Shown piece after piece: positions 15,526 to 30,193 of a stretch of DNA of 64,000 nucleotides (positions are counted from its first letter, which is position 1; every line of letters starts with the position of its first letter). The notes beneath the pieces were generated by a model. It was not told the origin of the DNA. It ran no database searches and saw nothing but the letters and a program-made list of their open reading frames with translations. Origin of the DNA: Kiritimatiellia bacterium (lineage in GTDB: Bacteria > Verrucomicrobiota > Kiritimatiellia > RFP12 > JBMNHG01); assembly GCA_050950285.1 (NCBI GenBank), contig JBMNHG010000004.1, positions 1 to 64,000 on the forward strand, given 5' to 3'. Position numbers and translations under genes: made by a program.

Positions 15526-16809
15526 CTATGGGGTGCTAGCCGGACTTTTCCCGTTTTTCCGGACTCGCTTCGGGCTGGCTAGCATTGTGGAGACTTGCCG
15601 CAACCACTTTTCATCCTCTGCAACCACGCAAAGAGCAATCATCAAGGAAACTTCACCCCGATAACCGCCAAAAGGGGAAAACAAGATTGCCCACCCCATT
15701 GAGATCGCCTTCAGAACCGCAAAGGGCGCCAGCGATTGAAGGCGCATGACCTTTTTTTGAACGAAATGCATAATCAAATAAAGCACATAACACCAAAACA
15801 AAAGCCCGAAGATGCCGTTTTGCACCCAAGCACCCACCAACGCGGAATGCCCCGGCAAGCGATCATCGTCCGTATACCCCCAACGATCCCGATAAGAAGA
15901 CCCCGACCCCACAATTGGATGGCGACGAAGAAAGGGCCACGCCCGCACGATATCATCACGGCTGCCCAATACGCCGGATTCCGAGTCCACCATTTCCGCA
16001 TAGTATTTGTTATATTCATCCTCGCCTAATTTTCCTTGAAGAGCCAAATTTTTGTAGATTGAAAAGGTGAACGCACCAACAATTGCGCCTGCAATACACA
16101 GGATCGTAAAATTCCGGATAAACAGCCGTGCGAGTCGTTTGAAGTAGGCATAACCGATGAAAAACACACTGCCCATCAAATTCACTCCAAACGTTGAACG
16201 AGAACCTCCATGGATTAACATAAAGAATGCTGAAAAGATGAGAACAACAATGACCACTATCCAAGGCAACCCATGAAGCGCAACCAAAGGGAACAATACG
16301 GAATAGATGATCGCTTTGAAATAAAGCGGGTAAACCTGCTTTTCCTGCAAATAGTCCTGAAGACCACCGTGGCCTATAAAACCGGCTTTTTCTGCAAAAA
16401 CGAGAAGTGAGCCATTCTGGAAATAATACAAGGAGATCACACAACTGAGACCATTTCCCACAACGAACCACATCCAGGTCCGATAATCCTCTTTCAGCAG
16501 CCAGATTCCGACCACTAGCATGCACCAGACATTGAATACAATCGCATTCCCTTTAAGCGCTACGTCAAAATATTCCTGTCGCCACCAGTTCGAGAACACG
16601 GCGCCGAACAGCCATAGCAAAGCCCACAACAACACTTTATGCTCTGCACGGGTAAATTTCGGAAAATTGATGTAAAACAAAAGAGGCCCAAGAAAAAATG
16701 CGGCCAAATCGAACATCGCAATGCGTCCAAATGGCGTTGGGACAAACAACATGGATCCAAGTCCACACAAAAACGCAAATGCCAATAAGTATTTATTTGT
16801 TTTTTTCAT
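15526..16809 (-). CDS. O-antigen polymerase/ligase (Wzy/WaaL-like) membrane protein
   Basis: About 10 TM segments, GGSRS motif, HPIVGSG...HSALVGAWVQNGIFG periplasmic loop motif. Confidence 0.7.
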   Translation of the reverse strand: MKKTNKYLLAFAFLCGLGSMLFVPTPFGRIAMFDLAAFFLGPLLFYINFPKFTRAEHKVLLWALLWLFGAVFSNWWRQEYFDVALKGNAIVFNVWCMLVVGIWLLKEDYRTWMWFVVGNGLSCVISLYYFQNGSLLVFAEKAGFIGHGGLQDYLQEKQVYPLYFKAIIYSVLFPLVALHGLPWIVVIVVLIFSAFFMLIHGGSRSTFGVNLMGSVFFIGYAYFKRLARLFIRNFTILCIAGAIVGAFTFSIYKNLALQGKLGEDEYNKYYAEMVDSESGVLGSRDDIVRAWPFLRRHPIVGSGSSYRDRWGYTDDDRLPGHSALVGAWVQNGIFGLLFWCYVLYLIMHFVQKKVMRLQSLAPFAVLKAISMGWAILFSPFGGYRGEVSLMIALCVVAEDEKWLRQVSTMLASPKRVRKNGKSPASTP

Positions 16810-17869
16810 AGATCGCCTTACATTGCCGATAAGCGTTCGCAGTAAAAATAGCTGTCTTATCCCAAGTTAGCTCACGATAGTTGCTACATTCTTTTACGGA
16901 AAGCCGCCCCCTCTCCCAGGCTGAAACCACTGCCAACCGAAGGGATTCAACCGATAACGGATCAAAATATTCGGCGTCCCATCCATAATACTGGCTTGTC
17001 CCTCCTTCAAACGAAACAACAGGGCGAGCACCAAGTGCCGCAGCCTCCAATAAGGCGATTCCAGGCGTTTCGCAATTTGAAGGCAGACATGCAACTCGTG
17101 CGAATTTCAATGTCTGGTAAAATGCTTCACTGCCATGAGGAATATGTCCCGTGAACAGCATATTTGAAGAGGCATATCGCTTATAGGCATCGCCCCCGCC
17201 TCCCATAAACACAATTCCGTAGGGTGTATCACGGAACGCCTCCATTAACAGTCTCTGATTCTTTCTCGGCGCAAAGATTCCGGGACAAACGATATATTCA
17301 TCGGCCGGGACAAAATTTGGTCTTTGCAGCTTATCCACCCATGCCGGAATGGGATCAATCGCGTTCGGAACAGAAATAACGGTTGCACCTTTTTTTGTCA
17401 GGCAATAACGTGAAAAATTCCGGACTTCATCCGACGAATTTGGAAGAATCAAGTCATATCCCTTGTAGGAAAAAAATGTTCTCACACCAAACATGGCCAA
17501 AAGGTCACGAAGCAAATCCACGAACAATCGCAAACTCATTCCTTGATTTCTGGCCAACACCAGATTGTAACGGAACGATCTCCAAAAAATAGAGGATGCC
17601 ACAAGCGGAACATCGAGTGCAGAGAATCTTTCGATGAATTTCGAAGGAATTGGCGGGATTGCGTGAATGATATCATAGTCTTTGTAAAATGAATTCCAGA
17701 CTCCTACCCTTTCTCCTTTCGCATCCGAAACAGTTCCCTTTTCATCGACATAGTTATGTGCCACGGTATGCCCTGCATTCTGCAGCGCCTGCGCAGTCTT
17801 GACAGCCTGCAAGCAATCGCCAGTCTTATCATTCCGCCTATGCGCAAACGTGACAATCGCAATCTTCAT
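16793..17869 (-). CDS. Glycosyltransferase, GT4/GT-B family
   Basis: [28 protein letters not shown] (EX7E), TWDKTA. Confidence 0.85.
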
Positions 17870-18996
17870 TCGGCAATCCTCAAGAATTGAACAATCCTCT
17901 GGGCCGCTTTTCCGTCGCCATAAGGATTCGCTCCTCTTGACATCCTGTCATAAGCCTCCGCGTTCATCAACAACTCCTCCACATTCCGGACAATTGTATC
18001 ACGGTCGGTTCCTACCAACTTTACAACACCTGCGTCAACGGCCTCTGGACGTTCCGTTGTATCCCGCATAACCAAAACGGGTTTCCCAAGACTCGGCGCC
18101 TCTTCCTGAACTCCTCCCGAATCCGTAAGAATAAGATGAGCTCTGCTCATCAAGGCAACAAACGCCAAATACGACTGCGGTTCGATCAGGTGGATATTCC
18201 GCAATATTTCTCCACGCAAAATGCGTTCGACAGGCTCTCTGACATTCGGGTTCAGATGGACGGGGTAAACGAATTGTACATCTGGAAAACGATGTGCCAA
18301 TTCTGCTATTGCGTGACAAATGTTCTCAAAACCTTCGCCGAAGTTTTCGCGTCGATGCCCCGTGATAAGCACCATTTTACTTTCGCCCAAACACCTTAAG
18401 CTGTCTCCAGGAAGACCCGCAATACGGGGGGAATGTTCCCTGATCTTTTCGATCGCCAGAAATAGAGCGTCGATTACCGTGTTGCCCGTGACATAAATGC
18501 GCTCATCCGGCACATGTTCGCGCAACAAAGTCTGTCTATTTCTTTCAGTCGGCGCGAAATGCCATCGGGCAAGACGTGTTGTCAACACACGGTTCGCCTC
18601 TTCAGGCCATGGCGAAGCCATATTTCCAGTTCTCAGGCCGGCTTCCACATGTCCGATAGGAATCTTATGATAAAAAGCAGTTAAGGCCGCACAGAATACC
18701 GTTGTCGTATCCCCTTGGACTAAAACGACATCGGGTTTCGCTTCAGCCAAATACCGATCCAGCGCTTCGATGGCACGCACCGTAAGCCCGCCGAGCGACT
18801 GATTCGCGCGCATCAGACCGAGATCGACATCCGGCACAACTCCAAAAACCGGCAACACCTGATCGAGCATCTCGCGATGCTGCCCCGTGACACAAACCTT
18901 ACAGTCAAAATTCGAATGCTTTTTAAGTTCAAGAATGACAGGACAAAGCTTGATTGCTTCCGGTCGCGTTCCAAAAATCACAGATACTCTTCTCAT
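17866..18996 (-). CDS. wecB: UDP-N-acetylglucosamine 2-epimerase (non-hydrolysing)
   Basis: [52 protein letters not shown]. Confidence 0.95.
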
Positions 18997-19004
18997 ACTC
19001 TCCT

Positions 19005-20111
19005 TCAGTTGACCATCTTGCCTAACAAAACCAAGGATTGTTTACGAATTCCTCTTAACTTAGTGTAATCAGCAGTGGAACAATCCAAAAGCAATATTTG
19101 GTTATCACTATCCGAGGCAAATATTTTGGGGGTAACTTCAGAATTCAGAATAAGAGTATCAATGCGAGAATTGGGGTCATGTCCGGTATTTCTGAGATGC
19201 AAGTACAAAAGCTTGCCAAATATCATTGAGAAGGCCGATGCATGAAATGAGTTCGTGAACACTGCCTTGGCCTCATTGATGGCATTTAAGAATTCACAAG
19301 GCCCCATTGTCACTTTCCCGCGTAATGGGATAGAATCAAGTCCCGGAACGAGAACGTCCACTAAATCAACATTATGTTCATGGGCATACCGGCTCGCTTG
19401 ATCATGAAGCACCGAAGACCGCCTGACATTATAAAGAAATACGTACGGTTTGCGAACCTTCGTTGATTGTTTCGCAAATTGCAGCCAAAATCCCTTTTCA
19501 TGCAACAAAACAGGATCCAGAACCGTATGAACCGGTTGTTGGATCATGTCCCCGACATAGTTTGCCCCCGCGTATTCGCGCATGGTGATTATATTGAACG
19601 ACTTCCAGGCATTGACGAATTCAGGAACCAAACTCTTTGGCCGAATGCCATCAACGCCAATACTGGCCGCATACGCATTTTTCTTCCTCCCATCCTTGAC
19701 GAAATCAAGCAAATAGGTTCGGTCGAACTTTTGCGGGGATACGGCAGAGTTAAGAGGATTCCATACCTGATCGCTTCCTACAATAAACGAATCGAAAAGC
19801 CCCTCCAGTTTAAACAATTCCTCCCGGCGATCGATGGGCTCTGACATCGGGAATTGGCTTCTAAAGTCTGCAAATAGTTTCCGCGCGTGACGTTCCGTGA
19901 ACAAGAAGTGAAGCAAGTGTTTAAGGGCAGGCACAGGGTTTCTATGCATTCGCCATGCTCGGTGATAGAGCCATTCGTAGTGCGGGCAGCGCCAATCGAG
20001 AATCATGCCGTCCGCGCCCAATTCCCCAATCGCCATAACCAACGCGAACGCTTGCAGAACAGCGCCAAAATTATTCGCTCTATGCGTTGTTAAAACAGCA
20101 ACCTTTTTCAT
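19005..20111 (-). CDS. Polysaccharide pyruvyl transferase family protein
   Basis: [40 protein letters not shown]. Confidence 0.85.
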
Positions 20112-20115
20112 GATA

Positions 20116-21288
20116 TCAATGTCCTCTCAACAATGTAAAAGCATGATATGCGCGAGTGATTAACTTTTTAAACAAAGTCCTCTTGAACAATTGATGAATA
20201 CACTTCGAATCAACAGACCACGCTCCAGTGAGTTGTCTGAAAAAACGGCGTCTTTTCCAATCTGGAAAATTCCATGCGTCTTTTTTTGTCACTGGGCTCC
20301 AGGCACATGGGTTATCCTGCGTTGCAACCTGTATGTCTACAGGAACGTACGAGCACTCGCCACGATTTTCAACTTTCTTCCAACACTCCTTCCCTTTTGC
20401 CGTCACTATAAAACATAGAGAGACACCCATACCATCTGCGAAGTCTTTCGCAAACTCCGCACATCCCCATGCATCGGCAATCGTCAGATCAGACCTGCTA
20501 GAAAAGCCTTTTGGGCAGGCAAAGCAACTCTGTCGGCAAAACCACCCAAGAGCCCATCCTTTGCCAAGGAATGTGTCGATAAACTTTGTCGAAACACGCG
20601 AACCGTTATCCAACTCGTAACGAATATAAAAGGGCGCCCATCCTTCTTTCTTATCCCGAAAATGAAAGTAAACAAGTTTCCCTTTGGACGTGATGCTCTG
20701 CTTGTAAAGCTCAAAAACTTTAGGAGAAGCCACCGAATGGCAAATCAAGTCCACGCAAAGCAGATTGTCATACGGTTTCTGCAAAAACAGCTTTAAGCCC
20801 GCAATCTGGCACGGACACCCGGAAAACAAGACCTTCCGTCCCGAATCCAATTGAGCTTTGACCTGGCGATAGGTATTTCCCATATCGGACTGGACATATT
20901 TGGAACCTCGCAAATCGTCCAGTTCTTCCTCGTTCTCCGCCGATTTATGGACAACCCGCCACGCTGGCTTCTCCCATCCCGCTCCGTAAACAATCCCGCC
21001 CTGCTTTAGGATCTCGCGGGCAAGGAGCGTAAACATGCCGCCGGAAGAGCTCTTCATGCGGAGCTCATCATCCTTGGCCTTGGCTGCGTAAACGGCTAAC
21101 GGCATTCTTTTCTGACCGGGATGCAGAACGGGGCAGACCTTTTGACACTGCCCGCAATTGACGCATAACGTTTTATCAATGACGGGCAGGAGAAATCCCT
21201 CGGCATCCGGCTTCATCGTGATTGCCCGTTTGGGACAAACCGCATAGCAGGCTGAACAGCCGCAGCATTTCGTCGGGGGGGGTAACAT
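20116..21288 (-). CDS. Coenzyme F420 hydrogenase/dehydrogenase beta-subunit-like (FrhB) 4Fe-4S protein
   Basis: CCGCSACYAVCP and CVNCGQCQKVCP ferredoxin motifs, SSSGG, GSKYVQS, GCPCQ, DLICH, SDLTIADAWG. Confidence 0.85.
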   Translation of the reverse strand: MLPPPTKCCGCSACYAVCPKRAITMKPDAEGFLLPVIDKTLCVNCGQCQKVCPVLHPGQKRMPLAVYAAKAKDDELRMKSSSGGMFTLLAREILKQGGIVYGAGWEKPAWRVVHKSAENEEELDDLRGSKYVQSDMGNTYRQVKAQLDSGRKVLFSGCPCQIAGLKLFLQKPYDNLLCVDLICHSVASPKVFELYKQSITSKGKLVYFHFRDKKEGWAPFYIRYELDNGSRVSTKFIDTFLGKGWALGWFCRQSCFACPKGFSSRSDLTIADAWGCAEFAKDFADGMGVSLCFIVTAKGKECWKKVENRGECSYVPVDIQVATQDNPCAWSPVTKKDAWNFPDWKRRRFFRQLTGAWSVDSKCIHQLFKRTLFKKLITRAYHAFTLLRGH

Positions 21289-22845
21289 TACGCGAGCGCT
21301 TTCACTTTCCGGGAGATTTCGGAAAATATGCGCAAGGCAAACCCGCGCTCCTTGGCATCAAAGACGCCCCACCAGCCAAGTGCCAGGATGACAACTTCCG
21401 TCACTACAACCGTCAAGCAAAGGCGGGGGAGTCCGACCGGAAAACTCCACACACAAAGAGCACCAAGGCCGCCAGCAACAACCATCAGCATCACGAGCGG
21501 GCCCACGACTCGAGTCAGCCAGATTTTTGGAGACATTCCGAAGAGATGACGACAAAAAATGACGCGACCGACCGAAGCAACTGAAACGGTCGCCACAAAG
21601 GCAACGCCGACAGAGGTGACGCCCATTCCGACTTTTATAAGCAACCACGCCAACGGCAAAGTCAGGATGAACACTGTGCCGAGCATCGCCTGATAGAGCG
21701 CAATTTTCCCATGGGCGGCTACCAATATCATGTGCCCGAAGGTGAGCTTATCAATAATCATCATAACCATCATGCAGCAACTGAGGACGGCAGTATGATC
21801 GGGTGGGACTTTGAGCCACAGGTGGAGTACTTCATCCAGTTCAAGTAAAAGCGGAAGGATTAAAATCAGCGCCAGAAACGTGCTGAACTTGCAGGCACGC
21901 AGGGATAGATCGATCGCCTGTTCGCGATGCCCGCTCCCCTCGGCCGTGGTGATGGCGGGTGTTAGGGCATTCTGCATGGCCCCAGACAAGGTAGAGGCCT
22001 GCCCCGATATTTGGTTTGAAATACTATAGGCCGCGTTCGCGGAAGGCCCAAAATGGAGGTTAACAAGGATGGCTGAGCCCTGATTCCGCAAGATTGTTCC
22101 TACCCCACCGAACATCTGCCATCCGGCAAAGCTGAAGAGCTTACCAAGGCGGGAGCGCTCAAGCCACTCCCGCCAGACAACCCGGCAGGCCTTAAAACGT
22201 AAACGCGCAAGCATGACAAGCATCAAGGGGATGCCGGCGTTCACAAGCATCACCAACACGGCATAGGCGATGAGGCGGTCACCAGGATAGCGAAGCAGTG
22301 CGAAGGTGCCGAAAAACAATACGACGACACGAACGATATCAAACACGGCCAGTACCGTGATCAATTGGTAGGCCGTGTACATGGCAGTATAGGGAATCGC
22401 AACCATCCCAAAAAAGGCGCCTAACAATGAAATCCGGAAGACCCAAAGGCATGCAGCTAACCGGTCCGGGGGGATTGTAAGCCAATGCCGGATTGCGTAT
22501 TCACCTATGGGAAGTCCAATCAGAATCAACAGCAAGGGGAGCGCAAGATAGACCGCCAAGGCCGTATTGAACCATCGGCGCAAATCGGCAACCGCGTCAT
22601 GCAGGGGAAAGCGTCTTTCCGTAACCGATGGAATAAGCATAGAAACGCGTCACCGCGCCGCGCATCACCATGCTGATAAATCCGATAAAACCAATGATGC
22701 TGCCCACCACACCGAACAGCCCCAAGTCAACCTGCCCAAGCGCCAGCAAGACCCACCGTGCCGTAAAGAGGTTCAGTCCGAACGTCAGCACGCTTCGTCC
22801 ATACGTAGCCAGCGTGTTCAGAACAATGCGTTGGGAAGAAGTCAT
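21288..22845 (-). CDS. Wzx-like polysaccharide flippase (MOP superfamily), with an apparent +1 frameshift
   Basis: The N-terminal ORF 22597-22845 (MTSSQRIVLNTLATYGRS...LGLFGVVG) and ORF 21288-22640 join in frame if one base of the G4 run at 22604-22607 is removed. Many TM helices; FAGWQMFG and NAAYSISNQI. Confidence 0.75.
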
Positions 22846-23577: not shown

Positions 23578-24537
23578 ATGCTCTCTGACGCCCGTATCCG
23601 CGCCGAACTCGACAACGTGCTCGTTGACGCCGACTTCCCGGAGTTCAACGTCCCCCGCACCGCCGGCAAGGTCCGCGACAGCTATCTGCTCGACGGCCGC
23701 CGCATCCTGGTCACCACCGACCGCATTTCCGCCTTTGACCGCGTGCTGGGCACCATCCCCTTCAAGGGCCAAGTGCTGAACCAGCTGGCGGCCTTCTGGT
23801 TCGAGAAGACCCGCGGGATCGTGCCCAACCACGTGATTTCCGTGCCGGACCCCAGCGTGATGGTCGTGCACGAGTGCGGCCAGCTTCCGCTCGAATTCAT
23901 CGTGCGAGGCTACATCACGGGCGTTACGCAGACCTCCGCCTGGACCCACTACAAGGCCGGCGTGCGCAACTTCTGCGGGAATCCGCTTCCCGACGGCCTC
24001 CGCAAGGACCAAAAGCTCGACGCCCCCATCCTCACGCCCACCACCAAGCACGAGGCACACGACCGCAACATCTCGCGCGACGAGGCCCTTTCCGAGGGGT
24101 TGATCGACGCCGCCACCTTCGACGCCGCGCGCGACATCTGCCTGCGGCTCTTCGAGGCCGGAACGCGGCATGCCGCCGCGCAGGGCCTGATCCTGGTGGA
24201 CACCAAGTACGAGATCGGCACGCTGGACGGCCGTCTCGTGGCGAGCGACGAGATCCACACCCCCGATTCCTCGCGCTACTGGTACGCCGCGGAGTATGCC
24301 GGCCGTTTCGCCCGGGGCGAGGAGCAGCGCAAGCTCGACAAGGAGTATGTGCGCGAATGGCTGGCGGCCCGCGGCTTCCGGGGGGATGGCGAGCCTCCCG
24401 TTCTCCCCGACGAGGTCCGCGTGGAGGCCGCGAAGCGCTACATCGAGGCGTACGAGCGGATCACGGGGCTCGAATTCCAGCCCGTCGAGGGCCCCGTCCG
24501 CGAGCGTGTCCGCGCCGCTTTGGCGGCGTTGCTCTAG
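23578..24537 (+). CDS. purC: Phosphoribosylaminoimidazolesuccinocarboxamide (SAICAR) synthase
   Basis: GKVRD, TDRISAFD, IPFKGQVLNQ, EFIVRGYITG, TPTTK, DTKYE, DEIHTPDSSRYW, DKEYVREW. Confidence 0.95.
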   Translation: MLSDARIRAELDNVLVDADFPEFNVPRTAGKVRDSYLLDGRRILVTTDRISAFDRVLGTIPFKGQVLNQLAAFWFEKTRGIVPNHVISVPDPSVMVVHECGQLPLEFIVRGYITGVTQTSAWTHYKAGVRNFCGNPLPDGLRKDQKLDAPILTPTTKHEAHDRNISRDEALSEGLIDAATFDAARDICLRLFEAGTRHAAAQGLILVDTKYEIGTLDGRLVASDEIHTPDSSRYWYAAEYAGRFARGEEQRKLDKEYVREWLAARGFRGDGEPPVLPDEVRVEAAKRYIEAYERITGLEFQPVEGPVRERVRAALAALL

Positions 24538-25337
24538 TCCGCGAAGCGGAAGAGCGCGCGCCAGTCGGAGCCGTTGCCTTCGCCGAGGCGCACGGCGAGC
24601 GGCCGGCCATCGGCGTAGTCGAAGAATCCGACCCAGTACAGGTGGCGGGAGGGGGCGAGGTTCCGGCGGTCGGTTTCGTCTGGAACGCGGGCGGCGGCGA
24701 AGAGGAGGTAGCGTCCGGGCGGGATGGGGGCGCAGGCGAACGTGCCGTCCTCCGCGGGGGCGATGCGCCAGTCGAGCGTCTTCAGGAACCGGTCGATGCG
24801 GGCGCGGGCGCGTTCCGCGGCGTGCCGCCGTGATGCCTCCTGGTTTCGTCCGGAGCGTTCGACCTCGGTGGACCGGTGGATTTTCACGCGGTTCGGGGTG
24901 ACTTCCACGTGGGGGAGGCCTTCGAACTCGACGGGTGCGGTGTCGCGGCGCAGGGCGGCGTCGATCTCCGCCAGCTCCTGCCGGAGGTCGATCAAGGCAC
25001 GGTGGCGGCGGCCGTCGAGCCGGCCGGCGTACACGCCGAGCTGCTGGGTGCCCCGGGGGAGGGCGAGGCGTCCGAGGAGCCCTTGCGTGTCGCTCTCGAA
25101 GGGGCGGATGTCGAGGGTGGCCATTTGGAGCGGATCGTCCGGGGAGAAGGCGGGCGGCGGCAGGGGCGCTTCGTGCCGGAGGATGGTTCCGCCGGGGATC
25201 CGGGTGGTTTCCCCGGGGCCGATGACGGCGCCGTGCTCCAGCCGGGAGTACCCGCCCGACGAGAAGGACAGTTGCGCCGGCGCGCGGGACGCGGCAAGCA
25301 GCAGCAACGCGCAAAGGGGGATGGGGCGACTCGTCAT
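24534..25337 (-). CDS. Hypothetical secreted protein, last gene of the fabG/KS/E1 operon
   Basis: Signal peptide MTSRPIPLCALLLLAASRAPA. Late EDGTFACAPIPPGRYLL segment resembles a prealbumin/carboxypeptidase-regulatory beta-sandwich. Stop overlaps the purC stop (CTAG). Confidence 0.6.
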   Translation of the reverse strand: MTSRPIPLCALLLLAASRAPAQLSFSSGGYSRLEHGAVIGPGETTRIPGGTILRHEAPLPPPAFSPDDPLQMATLDIRPFESDTQGLLGRLALPRGTQQLGVYAGRLDGRRHRALIDLRQELAEIDAALRRDTAPVEFEGLPHVEVTPNRVKIHRSTEVERSGRNQEASRRHAAERARARIDRFLKTLDWRIAPAEDGTFACAPIPPGRYLLFAAARVPDETDRRNLAPSRHLYWVGFFDYADGRPLAVRLGEGNGSDWRALFRFAD

Positions 25338-25360
25338 GGGCGCGTCCGGGCGGGTGGGCT

Positions 25361-26335
25361 TCAGAGCGTGGCGAGCTCGAGGGCGGCCTGGTAGATGGAC
25401 TCCTCGTCCGGGATGACGGCGGCTTCGAGGGTTTTGGCGGCGGGGACGGGGCAGTCGGGGGAGGCGATGCGCCGAACGGGGGCGGAGAGGGCGCCGTGCG
25501 CATGTTCGCCGACGATGGCGGCGAGTTCGGCGGCGATGCCGCCCGTGACGGGGCCTTCCTCCACGACGAGCACGCGGCCGGTCTTGCGCGCGGAGGCCAG
25601 GAGCGCCTCGCGGTCGAGCGGGGCGAGGGTGCGCAGGTCGATGACCTCCGCCGCGATTTCGTCTTCGGCAAGGCGGTCGGCCACGCGCGTGGCGAGATGG
25701 GCCATCCACGACCATGCGAGGATGGTGAGGTCCGTGCCTTCGCGGGCGACGCGCGCCGTGCCGAAGGGGATGGGTTCGATGGGGGTGTCGGGCAGTTCCC
25801 AGCGCAGCGGGTAGAGGCGTTTGTGCTCCACGAAGAGGACGGGGTTCGGGTTGCGGATGGCGGTCTTCAGCAGGCCCGCGAAATCGGCGCCCGTGGCGGG
25901 CGCGACGATCTGGATTCCGGGCGCGCCGAAGAAGAGGCGCTCGAGGCATTGCGAGTGGGTGGCGCCGTAGCCACGGCCGCCGCCGGAGGGCGTGCGGACC
26001 ACGAGGGGGCATGCCATGCCGTGCAGGTACTGCAGTTTCGCGGCCTGGTTCACGAGTTGGTCCACGCCCAGGGTGATGAAGTCCATGAACATGATTTCGG
26101 CGACGGGCACCGATCCGCCGGCGGCGGCGCCGATGGCCATGCCGAGGATGGCGGGTTCGGCGATGGGCGTGTCGCGCACGCGCTCGGGGCCGAACTCGTC
26201 GACGAGCCCCCGGGTGACGCCGAAGGAGCCGCCATAGACGCCGATGTCCTCGCCGAGGAGGAAGACGCGCTCGTCGCGCCGCATTTCGTCGGCCAGCGTT
26301 TCACGCAGGATTTGCACGGTGGTGGCCTGTTTCAT
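25361..26335 (-). CDS. ThDP-dependent 2-oxoacid/acetoin dehydrogenase E1 beta subunit
   Basis: GEDIGVYGGSF, DTPIAE, EIMFMDF, GATHSQ, EHKRLY, IDLRTLAPLD. ATGA overlap with E1 alpha. Confidence 0.9.
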   Translation of the reverse strand: MKQATTVQILRETLADEMRRDERVFLLGEDIGVYGGSFGVTRGLVDEFGPERVRDTPIAEPAILGMAIGAAAGGSVPVAEIMFMDFITLGVDQLVNQAAKLQYLHGMACPLVVRTPSGGGRGYGATHSQCLERLFFGAPGIQIVAPATGADFAGLLKTAIRNPNPVLFVEHKRLYPLRWELPDTPIEPIPFGTARVAREGTDLTILAWSWMAHLATRVADRLAEDEIAAEVIDLRTLAPLDREALLASARKTGRVLVVEEGPVTGGIAAELAAIVGEHAHGALSAPVRRIASPDCPVPAAKTLEAAVIPDEESIYQAALELATL

Positions 26336-27279
26336 GCGTAGACTCCTTCGGCGGCGCGGGCCGGATCGAGGGGGAGGTCGGCGGAAGCGAAGGCGACGGC
26401 CTCCTCCACGGTTGCGACGGCGCGGGCGTCGGCCCGGCTGCATGCCTCGTCCCACAGGCCGCGGCTCCGGAGCGTTGCCTCGAGACGGGCGATGGGTTCG
26501 TGCCGCCGGGCTTCGGCCTCCTCTTCGCGGCTGCGGTAGACGCAGCGGTCGCCGCGGGAGTGGCCGGAAAGGCGGTAGGTCATGCATTCGAGCAGCGTCG
26601 CGCCGCCGCCGTCGCGCGCGATGCGCACGGCCTCCTCCATGGCCTCCGCGACGGCCTCGACGTCGTTGCCGTCGACGCGTACGCCGCGAAGGGCGTATGC
26701 GGCGGCGCGCCCGGCCACGTTTGGATTCGCAAGGCCTTTCGCGGTGGAGGTGGACATCGCGTAGCCGTTGTTTTCGCAGACGTACACGACGGGGAGTTTC
26801 CAGAGGCCGGCGAAGTTCAGGGATTCGTGGAAGGTGCCCTGGCTCGCGGCGCCGTCCCCGAAGAGGCATGCGGTGACGCGTCCGGTCTTGCGGAGCCTGG
26901 CGTCGAGGGCGAGGCCGGTGGCGAAGGGGAGGCTTCCGCCCACGATTCCGTTCGCGCCATAGAAGCCGATCGAGAGGTCGGTCATCATCTGGCTTCCTCC
27001 GCGTCCTTGGGCGTATCCGGAAGCGCCTCCGAAAAGCTCGGCGAGGAGGCGGCGCGGGCTGGCGCCCCGGGCGAGGAAGTGGCCGTGTCCGCGGTGGGAG
27101 GAGGTGAGGGCGTCGTCGGGTCCGAGGGCGGCGCAGACGCCCACGGCGACGGCTTCCTGGCCGATGCAGACGTGTGCGGTTCCGCCGATGCGGCCTTCGG
27201 CGAAGAGGCGTTCGACGGCCTCCTCGAAGCGCCGGATGAGGAGCATCCGCGCATGGCAGGCTTTGAGGTCGAGGTTCAT
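26332..27279 (-). CDS. ThDP-dependent 2-oxoacid/acetoin dehydrogenase E1 alpha subunit
   Basis: GQEA, HRGHGH, GRGGS, NGIVG, ThDP motif GDGA...ENN, TYRLSGHS. Overlaps the KS stop. Confidence 0.9.
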   Translation of the reverse strand: MNLDLKACHARMLLIRRFEEAVERLFAEGRIGGTAHVCIGQEAVAVGVCAALGPDDALTSSHRGHGHFLARGASPRRLLAELFGGASGYAQGRGGSQMMTDLSIGFYGANGIVGGSLPFATGLALDARLRKTGRVTACLFGDGAASQGTFHESLNFAGLWKLPVVYVCENNGYAMSTSTAKGLANPNVAGRAAAYALRGVRVDGNDVEAVAEAMEEAVRIARDGGGATLLECMTYRLSGHSRGDRCVYRSREEEAEARRHEPIARLEATLRSRGLWDEACSRADARAVATVEEAVAFASADLPLDPARAAEGVYA

Positions 27280-29315
27280 GGGGACGGAGGCTCCAGGAGG
27301 AAGGTGGCGGTTTGGCCGTCGGGGGCGTCGAAGCGGATGGTGGACGGCATGGGGGCGTCCGCGAGCGCGGCGGCGTCGAGGGCCGTGCGCAGGAGGGCGG
27401 CGGCGCCGCGGGTGTCTCCGCACAGGGCGTCGGCGTGCGCGGCCGGATCGCCGGCCCCGGCGGGGGAGGGGACGCCGGCCGGGAGGCTTCCGGCCCTGGC
27501 GAGGGTGGCGATGGCGGCAGCGGGCGTGGCGCCGGGGGGGGCGCGTTCGAGCAGGAGGGCGGCGCCGGCTTCGCCGCGCGGGGTGTCCGGGAGGTCGTGG
27601 CCGATTGTTTCGGCGGCGCAGACGAGCACGACGTCCGCTTCGCCTGCGGCGAGGAGGTCCGCTGCGGCGAGGAGGGCCTGCGCGGAGGCCATGCGGCCCG
27701 TGGTGAAGTTCAGGTGGGGGCCGCGCAGTTCCCATTCCATCGCGGCGAGGCTTATGGCGGTGTTGGCGTAGGCGTGCTGGAAGAGCATGGGCTTCACGAG
27801 GCGCGGGCCTTTGGCCTCCAGGTCGGCCAGGAAGAGGCGGACGGTGTCCGAACCGCCTTCCGCGGTGGCGGCACAAACGGCGCGCCGCTCCGGCGGGACG
27901 TCGTCCAGGCCGCCGCGCCGCGCGATGGCCATGCCGCAGGCGGCGAGCAGGAGTTCCGATTGGCGGTCGAGGTAGTTCTTGGGCGTGGGGACGAAATCGG
28001 CGAGGGCGAAGGGGGGCACGCGGCCCACGGCCCGCCCGTCGGCGTCTTCCTCGAGCGCGGGTTCGTTCTCGGCCAGCGCGGCGAGGTTCTCTTCGGGGCC
28101 GATGCCGAGGGGGGAGAGGAGGCCGATGCCGGTGACGATGCACTTCGCGGGGTCGGGCGGGATGGGCCTGGCGGGGGTGTCGTGGCGTTGGATGGCGGCG
28201 AACACGACGGCGCCGTTGCAACCGCCGATTCCGGCGGAGTTGGAGAGGGCGAGGCGGATGTCCGCCTTTCGCGGCGTGCCGCGAACGACGTCGAGGGGGC
28301 AGTCGGGGTCGGGGGTCTCGAGGTTGGCGGTGGGGGGGATGAGGCCTTCGCGCAGGGAGAGCACGGTGGCGATGGCCTCGGCGGTTCCGGCGGCGCCGAG
28401 GAGGTGGCCGACGACGCCCTTGGCGGAGGTCGCGGGGATGGAGGCGGCGCGCTCCCCGCACAGGTCGAGGAAGGCCTGGGATTCGGTGAGGTCGTTGTGT
28501 TTCGTGCCGGTTCCGTGCGCGTTGAAGAAGTCGAGGTCGGCGGGGGAGGCGTTGGCGCGGGCGAGGGCGCGCCGCATCACGTCGAGGGATCCGGCGCCGC
28601 GCGGGGAGGGGGCGGTGAGGTGGAAGCCGTTGTTGCCGGTGGCCCATCCGGCGAGGCGGGCGAGGGGCGTTCCGCCGCGGGCTTCGCAGGCGGGGGCCCG
28701 TTCGAGGAGGAGGGCGGCGGCCCCTTCGCTGAAGAGCGTGCCGGAGCGGGAGGCGTCGAAGGGGCGGACCACCGTGTCGCGCGCCATCGTGCGCAAGGCG
28801 TAGAGCCCGCTCCACGAAAAGGGGGAAAGTTCGTCGAACCCGACGACGAGCATCCGTTCCGCCCGCCCGGCGGCGAGCAGGTCGGCGGCGGCGGCGAGGG
28901 CGGACGCCCCCGACGCGCAGGAGAGGGAGAGGGTGATGCGGGGGCCGCGCAGGCCGAGGGCGTCGGAGATCCGCGCCTGGCTGTCATCCTGCGTGGGCAG
29001 CTCCATCGTGGCGAAGTTCGTGGCGGCGATGAGCCCGCAGGAGGCGCGTCCGGCTTCCCCGAGGCCTTGCAGGGCCTCCTCGCCGGCGGCGACTGCGAAG
29101 CGAACGGCGCGCGGTGCGTCGGCGGGTTGCGCGGGGATGCCGTCGATTTGCCCGCCGCAGGTGGGGGGGAGGCCGGCATCGCCGGGGAAGAGGCGGACGG
29201 GGCGCAGGAGGCTTTCGCCCTCCAGCAGGGCCTGCCAGAAGGCGCTTGCGCCCGGCCCTGCAGGGGTGAAGGCGCCCATGCCGGAAACGACGATGGAAGG
29301 CGTGGGGTCGTTCAT
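27276..29315 (-). CDS. Beta-ketoacyl synthase (FabF-like KS) fused to a catalytically degenerate KS/CLF-like domain
   Basis: N-terminal KS with Cys-His-His triad (SLSCASG, NAHGTGT, KGVVGHLLGAAG) and NSAGIGGCN. Second thiolase-fold domain starts CIVTGIGLLSPLG and includes VKPMLFQHAYAN and GPHLNFTTGRMAS, with no catalytic Cys. Confidence 0.8.
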   Translation of the reverse strand: MNDPTPSIVVSGMGAFTPAGPGASAFWQALLEGESLLRPVRLFPGDAGLPPTCGGQIDGIPAQPADAPRAVRFAVAAGEEALQGLGEAGRASCGLIAATNFATMELPTQDDSQARISDALGLRGPRITLSLSCASGASALAAAADLLAAGRAERMLVVGFDELSPFSWSGLYALRTMARDTVVRPFDASRSGTLFSEGAAALLLERAPACEARGGTPLARLAGWATGNNGFHLTAPSPRGAGSLDVMRRALARANASPADLDFFNAHGTGTKHNDLTESQAFLDLCGERAASIPATSAKGVVGHLLGAAGTAEAIATVLSLREGLIPPTANLETPDPDCPLDVVRGTPRKADIRLALSNSAGIGGCNGAVVFAAIQRHDTPARPIPPDPAKCIVTGIGLLSPLGIGPEENLAALAENEPALEEDADGRAVGRVPPFALADFVPTPKNYLDRQSELLLAACGMAIARRGGLDDVPPERRAVCAATAEGGSDTVRLFLADLEAKGPRLVKPMLFQHAYANTAISLAAMEWELRGPHLNFTTGRMASAQALLAAADLLAAGEADVVLVCAAETIGHDLPDTPRGEAGAALLLERAPPGATPAAAIATLARAGSLPAGVPSPAGAGDPAAHADALCGDTRGAAALLRTALDAAALADAPMPSTIRFDAPDGQTATFLLEPPSP

Positions 29316-29322
29316 CGGGAAA

Positions 29323-30084
29323 TCACCCCTTCATGCAGAGTCCGCCGTCCACGGAAAGAACCTGGCCGGTGATGTACGCGGCATCGTCCGAGGCGAGGAA
29401 GCGCACGGCGGAGGCGACCTCCTGCGGCGTGCCGAAACGCCCCATCGGCACCCTGGCCAATTGGCGTTCGCGGCGCGCGCCGGCGAGTCCGTCGGTCATG
29501 GGCGTTTCGATGACGCCGGGGGCCACGGCGTTTACGGTCACGCCCGAGTCGGCGAGTTCGCGGGCGGCGCTGCGGACGAGGCCGAGCAGGCCGGCTTTCG
29601 AGGCGCTGTAGGCCGAATGGAGGGCATCGCCCAGAAGCGCGGCGGCCGAGGAGATCACCACGATGCGTCCGGACTTGCGGCGCATCATCGCGCGTGCGGC
29701 AGCCTTCATCAGGCAGAAGACGGAGTCGAGGTTCACGTTCATCGTCTCGCGCCAGTCCTCGAAGCGGGAAAGGGCGAGGAACTGCGTCTTTTGCAACCCC
29801 GCGTTGCAGACGACCACGCCGACGGATCCCAGTGCCGCCTCGGCGTCCGCGAAGAGATCGGCCGCGGCCTCCGGACGGGCGAGGTCGCGGGGCGGGAGCG
29901 CCACGGCGCCGTTGCCCAGGGACTCGGCAAGCGCCCGGGCGAGGTCGATGCCGCCGTGCGAGGCGAGGGCGACGGGATGCCCCGCGGCGTGGAGGGCGCG
30001 GGCGATGGCGGAGCCGATCGCGCCCGAGGCGCCGGTGACCAGCGCGGGCGTGCCCGACGATGGGGTTGGGATTGTTGTTGCCAT
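29323..30084 (-). CDS. fabG: 3-oxoacyl-ACP reductase (FabG-like SDR)
   Basis: TGASGAIG, CNAG, YSASK, VNAVAPG, ITGQVLSVDGG. Confidence 0.85.
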   Translation of the reverse strand: MATTIPTPSSGTPALVTGASGAIGSAIARALHAAGHPVALASHGGIDLARALAESLGNGAVALPPRDLARPEAAADLFADAEAALGSVGVVVCNAGLQKTQFLALSRFEDWRETMNVNLDSVFCLMKAAARAMMRRKSGRIVVISSAAALLGDALHSAYSASKAGLLGLVRSAARELADSGVTVNAVAPGVIETPMTDGLAGARRERQLARVPMGRFGTPQEVASAVRFLASDDAAYITGQVLSVDGGLCMKG

Positions 30085-30091
30085 GCGTACC

Positions 30092-30120
30092 AGTGTAGCG
30101 GCCCCGCAGATTCGATGCCA
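30092..30120 (-). promoter_or_regulatory. Sigma70-like promoter for the fabG operon, probably leaderless
   Basis: TGGCAT-17 bp-TACACT, ending 7 nt before the ATG at 30084; no SD sequence. Confidence 0.45.
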
Positions 30121-30152: not shown

Positions 30153-30193
30153 AAAAAAAACTTCCCTCCCGCCTCCATGGGGCGGGAAGGAAG
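30153..30193 (-). terminator. Intrinsic terminator of potABCD
   Basis: Minus strand: CTTCCTTCCCGCCCC ATG GAGGCGGGAGGGAAG hairpin followed by T8. Confidence 0.75.

Follow-up and report, generated by a model that had tools for sequence, protein, structure and literature searches.

The window analysed here, a stretch of 64,000 nucleotides from a Kiritimatiellia bacterium (positions 1 to 64,000, forward strand, of contig JBMNHG010000004.1, assembly GCA_050950285.1), contains an operon of five minus-strand genes. Four of them, which encode a FabG-like ketoreductase (KR), a ketosynthase-chain length factor (KS-CLF) fusion and the alpha and beta subunits of a thiamine diphosphate (ThDP)-dependent E1 enzyme, are core genes of a conserved pathway, which is encoded in one run in some lineages and dispersed over this genome. 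The pathway is apparently undescribed and larger than first seen; among open-licence papers, supplements aside, no description of this gene combination was found. In the model that we favour, with little more than even confidence, E1 would acylate the lipoyl arm of a small carrier protein (LIP), the KS-CLF would extend the acyl group, FabG would reduce it, and the resulting short hydroxy-acyl chain would be placed on a surface glycan. The genes of the operon are the following:

29323-30084, minus strand: FabG-like ketoreductase of 253 amino acids (aa), a short-chain dehydrogenase/reductase (SDR) or FabG-like protein by Pfam and NCBIfam; in relatives it lies behind LIP or forms a fusion with it
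27276-29315, minus strand: KS-CLF fusion of 679 aa with N- and C-terminal ketoacyl-synt domains, an active KS half and an inactive KS-like half
26332-27279, minus strand: ThDP-dependent E1alpha (E1_dh) with the GDG...NN motif, H240, and GGSQ in place of GGSMH
25361-26335, minus strand: E1beta (Transket_pyr and Transketolase_C) with the catalytic Glu60 and His127
24534-25337, minus strand: ORF5, secreted-looking, 267 aa, no Pfam or NCBIfam family, a probable passenger

The initial annotation, made from the letters alone, had described five co-oriented, tightly packed genes; all five reading frames are in place, the family scans agree with them, and both of its ATGA overlaps (KS/E1alpha and E1alpha/E1beta) are real. 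The other intergenic gaps measure 7 nt (fabG-KS) and 23 nt (E1beta-ORF5). The GC content of the operon, overall and at third codon positions (GC3), is genome-like, and the closest relatives are labelled Kiritimatiellae or Lentisphaerales.

The operon had also been called self-contained and without E2, E3 or acyl carrier protein (ACP). Within the window this is correct, since every match to an E2, an E3, a lipoyl domain or an ACP lies on another contig; for the genome it is not, as a lipoyl carrier, a dedicated ACP and further partners, as well as a separate complete E1-E2-E3 operon, are encoded on those contigs:

contig C3, 425768-426286: LIP, a stand-alone lipoyl and E3/E1 subunit-binding protein with no acyltransferase domain
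contig C2, 167976-168227: dedicated ACP
contig C2, 318510-323600: separate, complete E1-E2-E3 operon with a fused E1
contigs C8, C2 and C6: other scattered partners, namely a family 2 glycosyltransferase (GT2), a secreted esterase and a fused hydrolase pair, respectively

A housekeeping fabG-acpP-fabF set, LipA, a LipB-like motif and an E3 are likewise present in the genome. With a DeoR-type regulator in front, the stretch of the E1-E2-E3 operon (C2:317681-323602, L002:5682-11603) holds a fused E1alpha-beta of 766 aa, E2 and E3; the fused E1 falls outside PdhA on a long branch and may serve sugar catabolism instead of acting as a pyruvate dehydrogenase (PDH). The secreted alpha/beta esterase (C2:1061171-1062760, L189:8172-9761) has orthologs that precede the large secreted-looking protein described below in contiguous clusters. 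A third ACP (C11:146297-146512, L007:8298-8513) lies in a lower-GC stretch near glycosyltransferase genes and suggests another glycan acylation system.

LIP was found through the relatives of the KS, which are preceded by a conserved pair of genes for a large secreted-looking protein and a LIP of about 170 aa. The co-inherited LIP proteins have about 150-190 aa, and Pfam recognises in them lipoyl and E3-binding domains only, the PF00198 acyltransferase domain not being found. Among the best 150 matches at 50% clustering, 57 are 150-195 aa long and 53 have the LIP architecture; the other four (P0022, P0100, P0112, P0150) were excluded from alignment A1 as different architectures. The lipoyl lysine is invariant in the aligned LIPs (55/55 and 45/45). 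To judge by its domains, LIP appears to be an E2 remnant which has kept the lipoyl and subunit-binding domains and lost the acyltransferase domain. In three genomes (G296, G396, G289) it is fused to FabG in proteins of 447-471 aa, two of which stand directly before a KS-CLF fusion. A metagenome scan with one LIP returned 41 loci, only two of them with full-length matches (L204, where FabG follows, and L205, where the large protein precedes) and the remainder with the lipoyl domain only. In this genome the large protein is of about 2035 aa, secreted-looking and of no known family, and stands directly before LIP (C3:426286-432393, L111:10287-16394). Such a protein, of about 1950-2035 aa, precedes LIP in most relatives, across orders and classes; it gave one weak PF06439 match, and its Atlas look-alikes share the same beta-sandwich fold.

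The distribution of these genes was followed in one sample of 151 genomes of the order, 95 of them of high quality. LIP was present in 42 genomes, KS, E1alpha and ACP in 40 each, GT2 in 38 and the hydrolase in 36, the union of all being only 43; the four core genes (KS, E1alpha, LIP, ACP) occur together in 36 genomes and all six in 29. The same 22 of the 95 high-quality genomes hold the four core genes, 19 have GT2 or the hydrolase, and LipA is found in all 22. E3 is present in 29 of the 32 genomes tested. The initial annotation had proposed to look for co-occurring lipoyl-ACP or ACP genes; LIP and the dedicated ACP follow KS and E1alpha from genome to genome.

The proposed linkage between KS and E1 was upheld in part. 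Of the 38 genomes of the order with both genes, only four have them side by side; outside the order, LIP, fabG, KS-CLF, E1alpha and E1beta form one run in six genomes from other orders or classes (G383, G290, G257, G276, G373, G386), with a short insert in G383. GT2 comes next in five of these runs, the contig ending in the sixth, and ACP in two. These runs were among 13 regions compared, which also comprised three LIP-FabG fusions, three regions from members of the order, where LIP stands by itself or with fabG behind it, and an ordinary PDH. In G290 the run continues with ACP, hydrolase 2, hydrolase 1, four GT4 genes, MurJ and a Wzy_C protein; in G383 a Wzy_C gene stands before it and ACP, hydrolases and GT4 after it. 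As a control, 59 distant KS loci contained no homolog of LIP, E1, GT2 or the hydrolases. A variant layout is seen in L025, L032 and L041, where cmk, the KS-CLF fusion, an ABC transporter pair, an unknown gene and a DJ-1 family gene precede E1alpha and E1beta.

The KS half of the fusion carries C133, H267, K299 and H304, invariant in 12/12 aligned fusions, and the second half is devoid of them. The predicted structure (predicted local distance difference test 84.6, predicted template modelling score 0.90) best matches the PfaC KS-CLF didomain 6RIW, with a template modelling (TM) score of 0.81. KS and CLF are two separate genes in many relatives. FabG keeps the NAD(P)-binding TGxxxxIG at residue 17 and YxxxK at 159. 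A Cys-His-His KS with a catalytically dead partner, accompanied by a discrete dedicated ACP and KR, agrees with a type II polyketide synthase (PKS)-like system; a cluster-encoded dehydratase, as expected of a highly reducing (polyene) type II PKS, was not recognised in any contiguous cluster. The combination of active KS and inactive partner recalls the highly reducing type II PKSs, the PfaC didomain and the AmcF/AmcG/AmcB proteins, and AmcF/AmcG are described as the KS-CYF pair of cispentacin synthesis (PMC10698177). Assignment to the cispentacin/coronafacic acid KS-CYF type was tried and rejected: the matches to the AmcF, AmcG and AmcB models are weak and all below cut-off (229/325, 38/80, 67/80), and, unlike in the Amc systems, neither the adenylating AmcH ligase that serves as loader nor a dehydratase is seen in the clusters, the starter being proposed to come from E1 and LIP. 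Elsewhere in the genome a stand-alone type I-like (PfaA-like) KS domain lies directly after rpoB-rpoC, with no PKS neighbours (C8:504292-505806, L005:7293-8807).

The ThDP-binding and catalytic residues of E1 are intact (GDG...NN and H240 in E1alpha, E60 and H127 in E1beta). E1alpha falls short of the cut-offs of the NCBIfam equivalogs TIGR03182 (328 against 393.85) and TIGR03181 (251 against 411.35). In a tree with references drawn from annotated plasmid records, the pathway E1alphas fall into a clade of their own (11 rows, 95/91), separate from PdhA, AcoA and BkdA, with which the initial annotation had asked for a comparison. The clade is sister to, and not nested in, a group of RenH and four E1s of the biosynthetic gene cluster (BGC) type (92/91), RenH being taken by us as the counterpart of QncN (its record names only RenH); another tree with RenH as the sole BGC reference gave the same picture. 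Both groups have the motifs HTCxGQE, GGSQ and HS[KR]G, PdhA and AcoA having GGSMH. Approximately unbiased (AU) tests, in which the groups were named after the tree had been seen, rejected the grouping of the pathway E1alphas with PdhA (p 0.031), with the AcoA/sugar set (p 0.028) and with the two top BLAST hits (p 0.022). The lipoyl protein inherited together with E1 has no PF00198 domain, and the full E2 sits in another operon. These features support an E1 that would not belong to a housekeeping PDH or branched-chain 2-oxoacid dehydrogenase and that would act with the KS and KR in a biosynthetic pathway. The claim of the initial annotation that this E1 is biosynthetic and does not serve central metabolism is borne out by co-occurrence, contiguous clusters, the LIP-FabG fusion and its own clade. 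Possibly another case of an E1 with a lone lipoyl domain occurs on a Thermus plasmid (L274:5853-6101), where acoAB is followed by a very short ORF at the E2 place and then a TRAP transporter.

That the genes form one biosynthetic pathway is very probable. Its first step would be the cleavage of a C2 unit from a donor by the E1 alpha2beta2 enzyme and the reductive acylation of the lipoyl arm of LIP; the components are observed and the reaction is that expected from the chemistry of the family. E1 and LIP are likely to supply the starter unit, and the chances are about even between glycolyl, from a ketose phosphate, and acetyl, from pyruvate, or another group. The acyl group would then move from dihydrolipoamide to the KS cysteine, either directly or by way of the hydrolase pair with its Cys nucleophile and the ACP, and the KS-CLF would carry out one or a few rounds of condensation with malonyl-ACP. 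The keto group would be reduced by FabG, which is joined to LIP by a tether or a fusion, and because no dehydratase is seen in the clusters the product would be a short (poly)hydroxy acyl-ACP. The hydrolase pair, GT2 or both may attach the acyl chain to a surface glycan made by the neighbouring GT4, MurJ-type and Wzy/ligase genes, and the E3 of the separate dehydrogenase operon would re-oxidise the lipoyl arm in trans. A surface glycan as the destination is somewhat more probable than all other ends taken together. The initial annotation had E1 feeding or modifying a KS/KR-made chain of a specialised lipid or metabolite; the biosynthetic role stands, and the context of the clusters favours a substituent of a surface glycan over a free metabolite or a membrane lipid.

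It is tempting to go further and to propose a hybrid of dehydrogenase and polyketide complex with the lipoyl arm itself as the carrier of the starter, which would be handed as an acyl-dihydrolipoamide thioester to the KS-CLF cysteine, or by the Cys hydrolase to the ACP, with neither CoA nor E2; this is possible, at a level of confidence clearly short of even. To the same tentative degree, the LIP-FabG fusions suggest that the ketoreductase may have taken the place of E2 at the end of a lipoyl-binding-linker architecture.

The nearest known systems are the loaders QncN/QncL/QncM (quinocarcin), SclQ1-4 (scleric acid) and RenH/RenI, in which a ThDP E1 pair likewise goes with a lipoyl domain and a dedicated ACP; with the Qnc and Ren systems there are also common E1alpha motifs and a weak sister grouping. 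For QncN/QncL/QncM and SclQ1-4, the loading of a glycolyl group on the ACP is described as the joint work of E1 with a lipoyl and an acyltransferase domain (PMC6335953). There the acyltransferase domain is joined to the lipoyl domain and the system feeds a non-ribosomal peptide synthetase, whereas here LIP has no such domain, adjoins or is fused to the ketoreductase, and is proposed to feed a type II KS-CLF. On the glycan side, the Wfp genes of Flavobacterium psychrophilum are predicted to make a dihydroxyhexanoyl group of the O-antigen with ACP, KS and KR (PMC6519341). By description, WfpC-G (3,5-dihydroxyhexanoyl) resemble the present genes in having ACP, KSs and KR with no dehydratase in a surface-glycan locus; as far as that account goes, they have a PglD-type acyltransferase and no E1/lipoyl starter, unlike the KS-CLF, E1, LIP and Cys hydrolase pair found here. 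The partner hydrolases have as their best NCBIfam matches the exosortase-A-associated hydrolase 1/hydrolase 2 pair (TIGR03100 and TIGR03101), but score below both cut-offs (103-108/168 and 151-157/203) and in this order are encoded by a single fused gene. At the nucleophile elbow, CSG is found in the hydrolase-1 half in 20/20 loci scanned, and mostly Arg in the hydrolase-2 half. In its proposed action the system resembles a Qnc-type loader coupled to a type II KS-CLF, but each of the known families has a defining feature that it lacks.

Several observations weigh against the pathway as proposed. LipA and the E2 catalytic domain, each found in 48 of the 151 genomes, occur largely in the same genomes as the system, and because lipoate metabolism follows these genomes the co-occurrence partly reflects shared loss; besides, kin genomes are not independent in such counts. 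Inside the order the genes lie mostly apart from one another, as the few KS-E1alpha adjacencies indicate. The lipoyl domains of LIP form a group of their own (88/91), apart from those of the Qnc-type E2s. The pathway E1alphas are devoid of the STGVQG motif and of the His of the Qnc-type GGSQH, the loop reading GGSQ[M/F/V/L] here, and their sister relation to RenH and the BGC type is unstarred and involves long branches. They are 49-50% identical to E1s of sugar-catabolic operons against 29-37% to the Qnc type, and the AU test did not reject a grouping with four sugar-operon E1s (p 0.055); either kinship would suit a ketol-cleaving enzyme. The glycan end of the pathway is not universal, because G048 (one contig) and G036 retain all four core genes while no GT2 ortholog or hydrolase pair was found in them.

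Of the 42 LIP genomes of the order, 40 encode an E2 acyltransferase domain at another locus, and 4/5 more distant genomes encode one too; therefore acyl-CoA could be the real intermediate. E1 and LIP would in that case be an addition to an ordinary E2/E3 pair, whose E2 domain would make the acyl-CoA starter of the KS in trans, and the frequency of E3 as well as the subunit-binding domain retained by LIP are in keeping with this. It is nevertheless rather unlikely: LIP stands beside or is fused to FabG and not E2 genes, family f10 includes eight genomes with E2 and LipA that lack the system, and in three genomes with the system that are 92-94% complete (G001, G036, G396) no E2 catalytic domain was detected, G036 having an E3 all the same. 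In G001 and G396 neither E2 nor E3 was detected, which may be due to assembly gaps. The fate of the chain could differ instead, the KS-CLF iterating with borrowed FabZ and FabI and GT2 glycosylating the product to a glycolipid or membrane lipid. The KS-CLF architecture does resemble polyene and polyunsaturated fatty acid systems, GT2 lies after or near E1beta in 16 fetched loci (duplicates included), one gene of the FabZ/FabA family (PF07977) is present in the genome, and borrowing of FabI has a precedent in the cispentacin synthesis described in PMC10698177. The missing dehydratase, the Wzy/ligase, MurJ and GT4 neighbours, and a KS region ahead of the active Cys that is shorter than in FabF make this outcome unlikely.

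Other readings change the role of E1. PDH-like E1 pairs with no full E2 also occur in glyco-biosynthetic clusters, AviB1/AviB2 and Pau11/Pau12 being described as branching sugars (PMC4425429), and with GT2 and an SDR in the cluster the present E1 might similarly form a branched tertiary alcohol by joining a C2 unit directly to a ketoacyl-ACP or a keto sugar, LIP being accessory. The likeness is one of description, and by description too the systems are set apart by the lipoyl carrier, KS-CLF, KR and ACP which travel with E1 here; moreover, a lipoate-free carboligase would not need the invariant LIP lysine and the LipA kept in every high-quality genome with the system, so that this role is distinctly unlikely. 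E1 might even run in reverse, a hydroxy-acyl chain built by KS and FabG being moved to the dihydrolipoyl arm and becoming a ThDP-bound acyl anion which attacks a nucleotide keto sugar, and GT2 would transfer the resulting C-branched higher sugar. The LIP-FabG fusion would place the product of the reductase beside the lipoyl arm, the GGSQ-hydrophobic loop could accommodate a larger acyl group, and neither E2 nor E3 was detected in G001 and G396. Both the reverse reaction and its sugar product are very improbable: no nucleotide-sugar dehydratase is seen in the clusters, the arm needs a reductant, no precedent was found in the open-licence literature, and the apparent gaps in those two genomes may be those of assembly. 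That an ordinary acetoin or pyruvate dehydrogenase E1 merely happens to lie behind fatty-acid genes is scarcely credible. E1beta does exceed the NCBIfam PDH-beta subfamily cut-off (326.8 against 321) and KS-E1alpha adjacency is rare in the order; the gene order that recurs in six genomes belonging to other orders or classes, the identical phyletic pattern, the separate E1alpha clade and the presence elsewhere of housekeeping acpP-fabF and E1-E2-E3 argue against it, and the contiguous clusters and the LIP-FabG fusion largely refute it.

The borders of the operon may be marked by two candidate signals:

30161-30193, minus strand: terminator-like hairpin ending the potABCD operon, 13 pairs of which 9 are G-C, with a T-tail, 3' of potD
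30092-30097, minus strand: hexamer 7 nt ahead of the fabG start, a candidate -10 element of a leaderless promoter, below the scanner threshold

The terminator that had been placed between the operon and potABCD was found as a hairpin with its T-tail, but the number of such sites does not exceed that in shuffled sequences (2 found against 3.6 expected in the same scan). As to a promoter of its own, a sigma-70 promoter scan gave none. A leaderless promoter before fabG is plausible because the TAnnnT hexamer lies at the distance from the ATG at which such hexamers are most frequent across the genome (at 7 nt in 57 of 4191 candidate starts, against 2-25 per distance outside 6-9 nt). ORF5 was ruled out as a member of the pathway, as it is not in the conserved set and tblastn detected no homolog of it in the fetched loci or in the rest of the genome; its Atlas neighbours are hypothetical proteins and its structure matches reach a TM score of at most 0.40. 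It is probably a passenger. ORF5 and purC are convergent, and their stop codons overlap (24534-24537) with no terminator-like site in between. Farther away, a lower-GC polysaccharide locus (15526-22845) contains a flippase-like gene which is apparently split (21288-22845) into ORFs of 82 and 450 aa.

The data presented here outline a pathway of some ten genes, open to testing, in the poorly studied Kiritimatiellia and related lineages, and because the core proteins are all small and soluble its mechanism can be addressed in vitro. The current annotation as separate 'pyruvate dehydrogenase' and 'FabF/FabG' genes misleads metabolic models. If the proposal is true, a type II polyketide system would here be primed in a new manner, through an E2 whose catalytic domain has been lost or exchanged. 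Should the lipoyl arm prime the KS-CLF directly, the stand-alone LIP family would mark an unrecognised and widespread route to acylated surface glycans.

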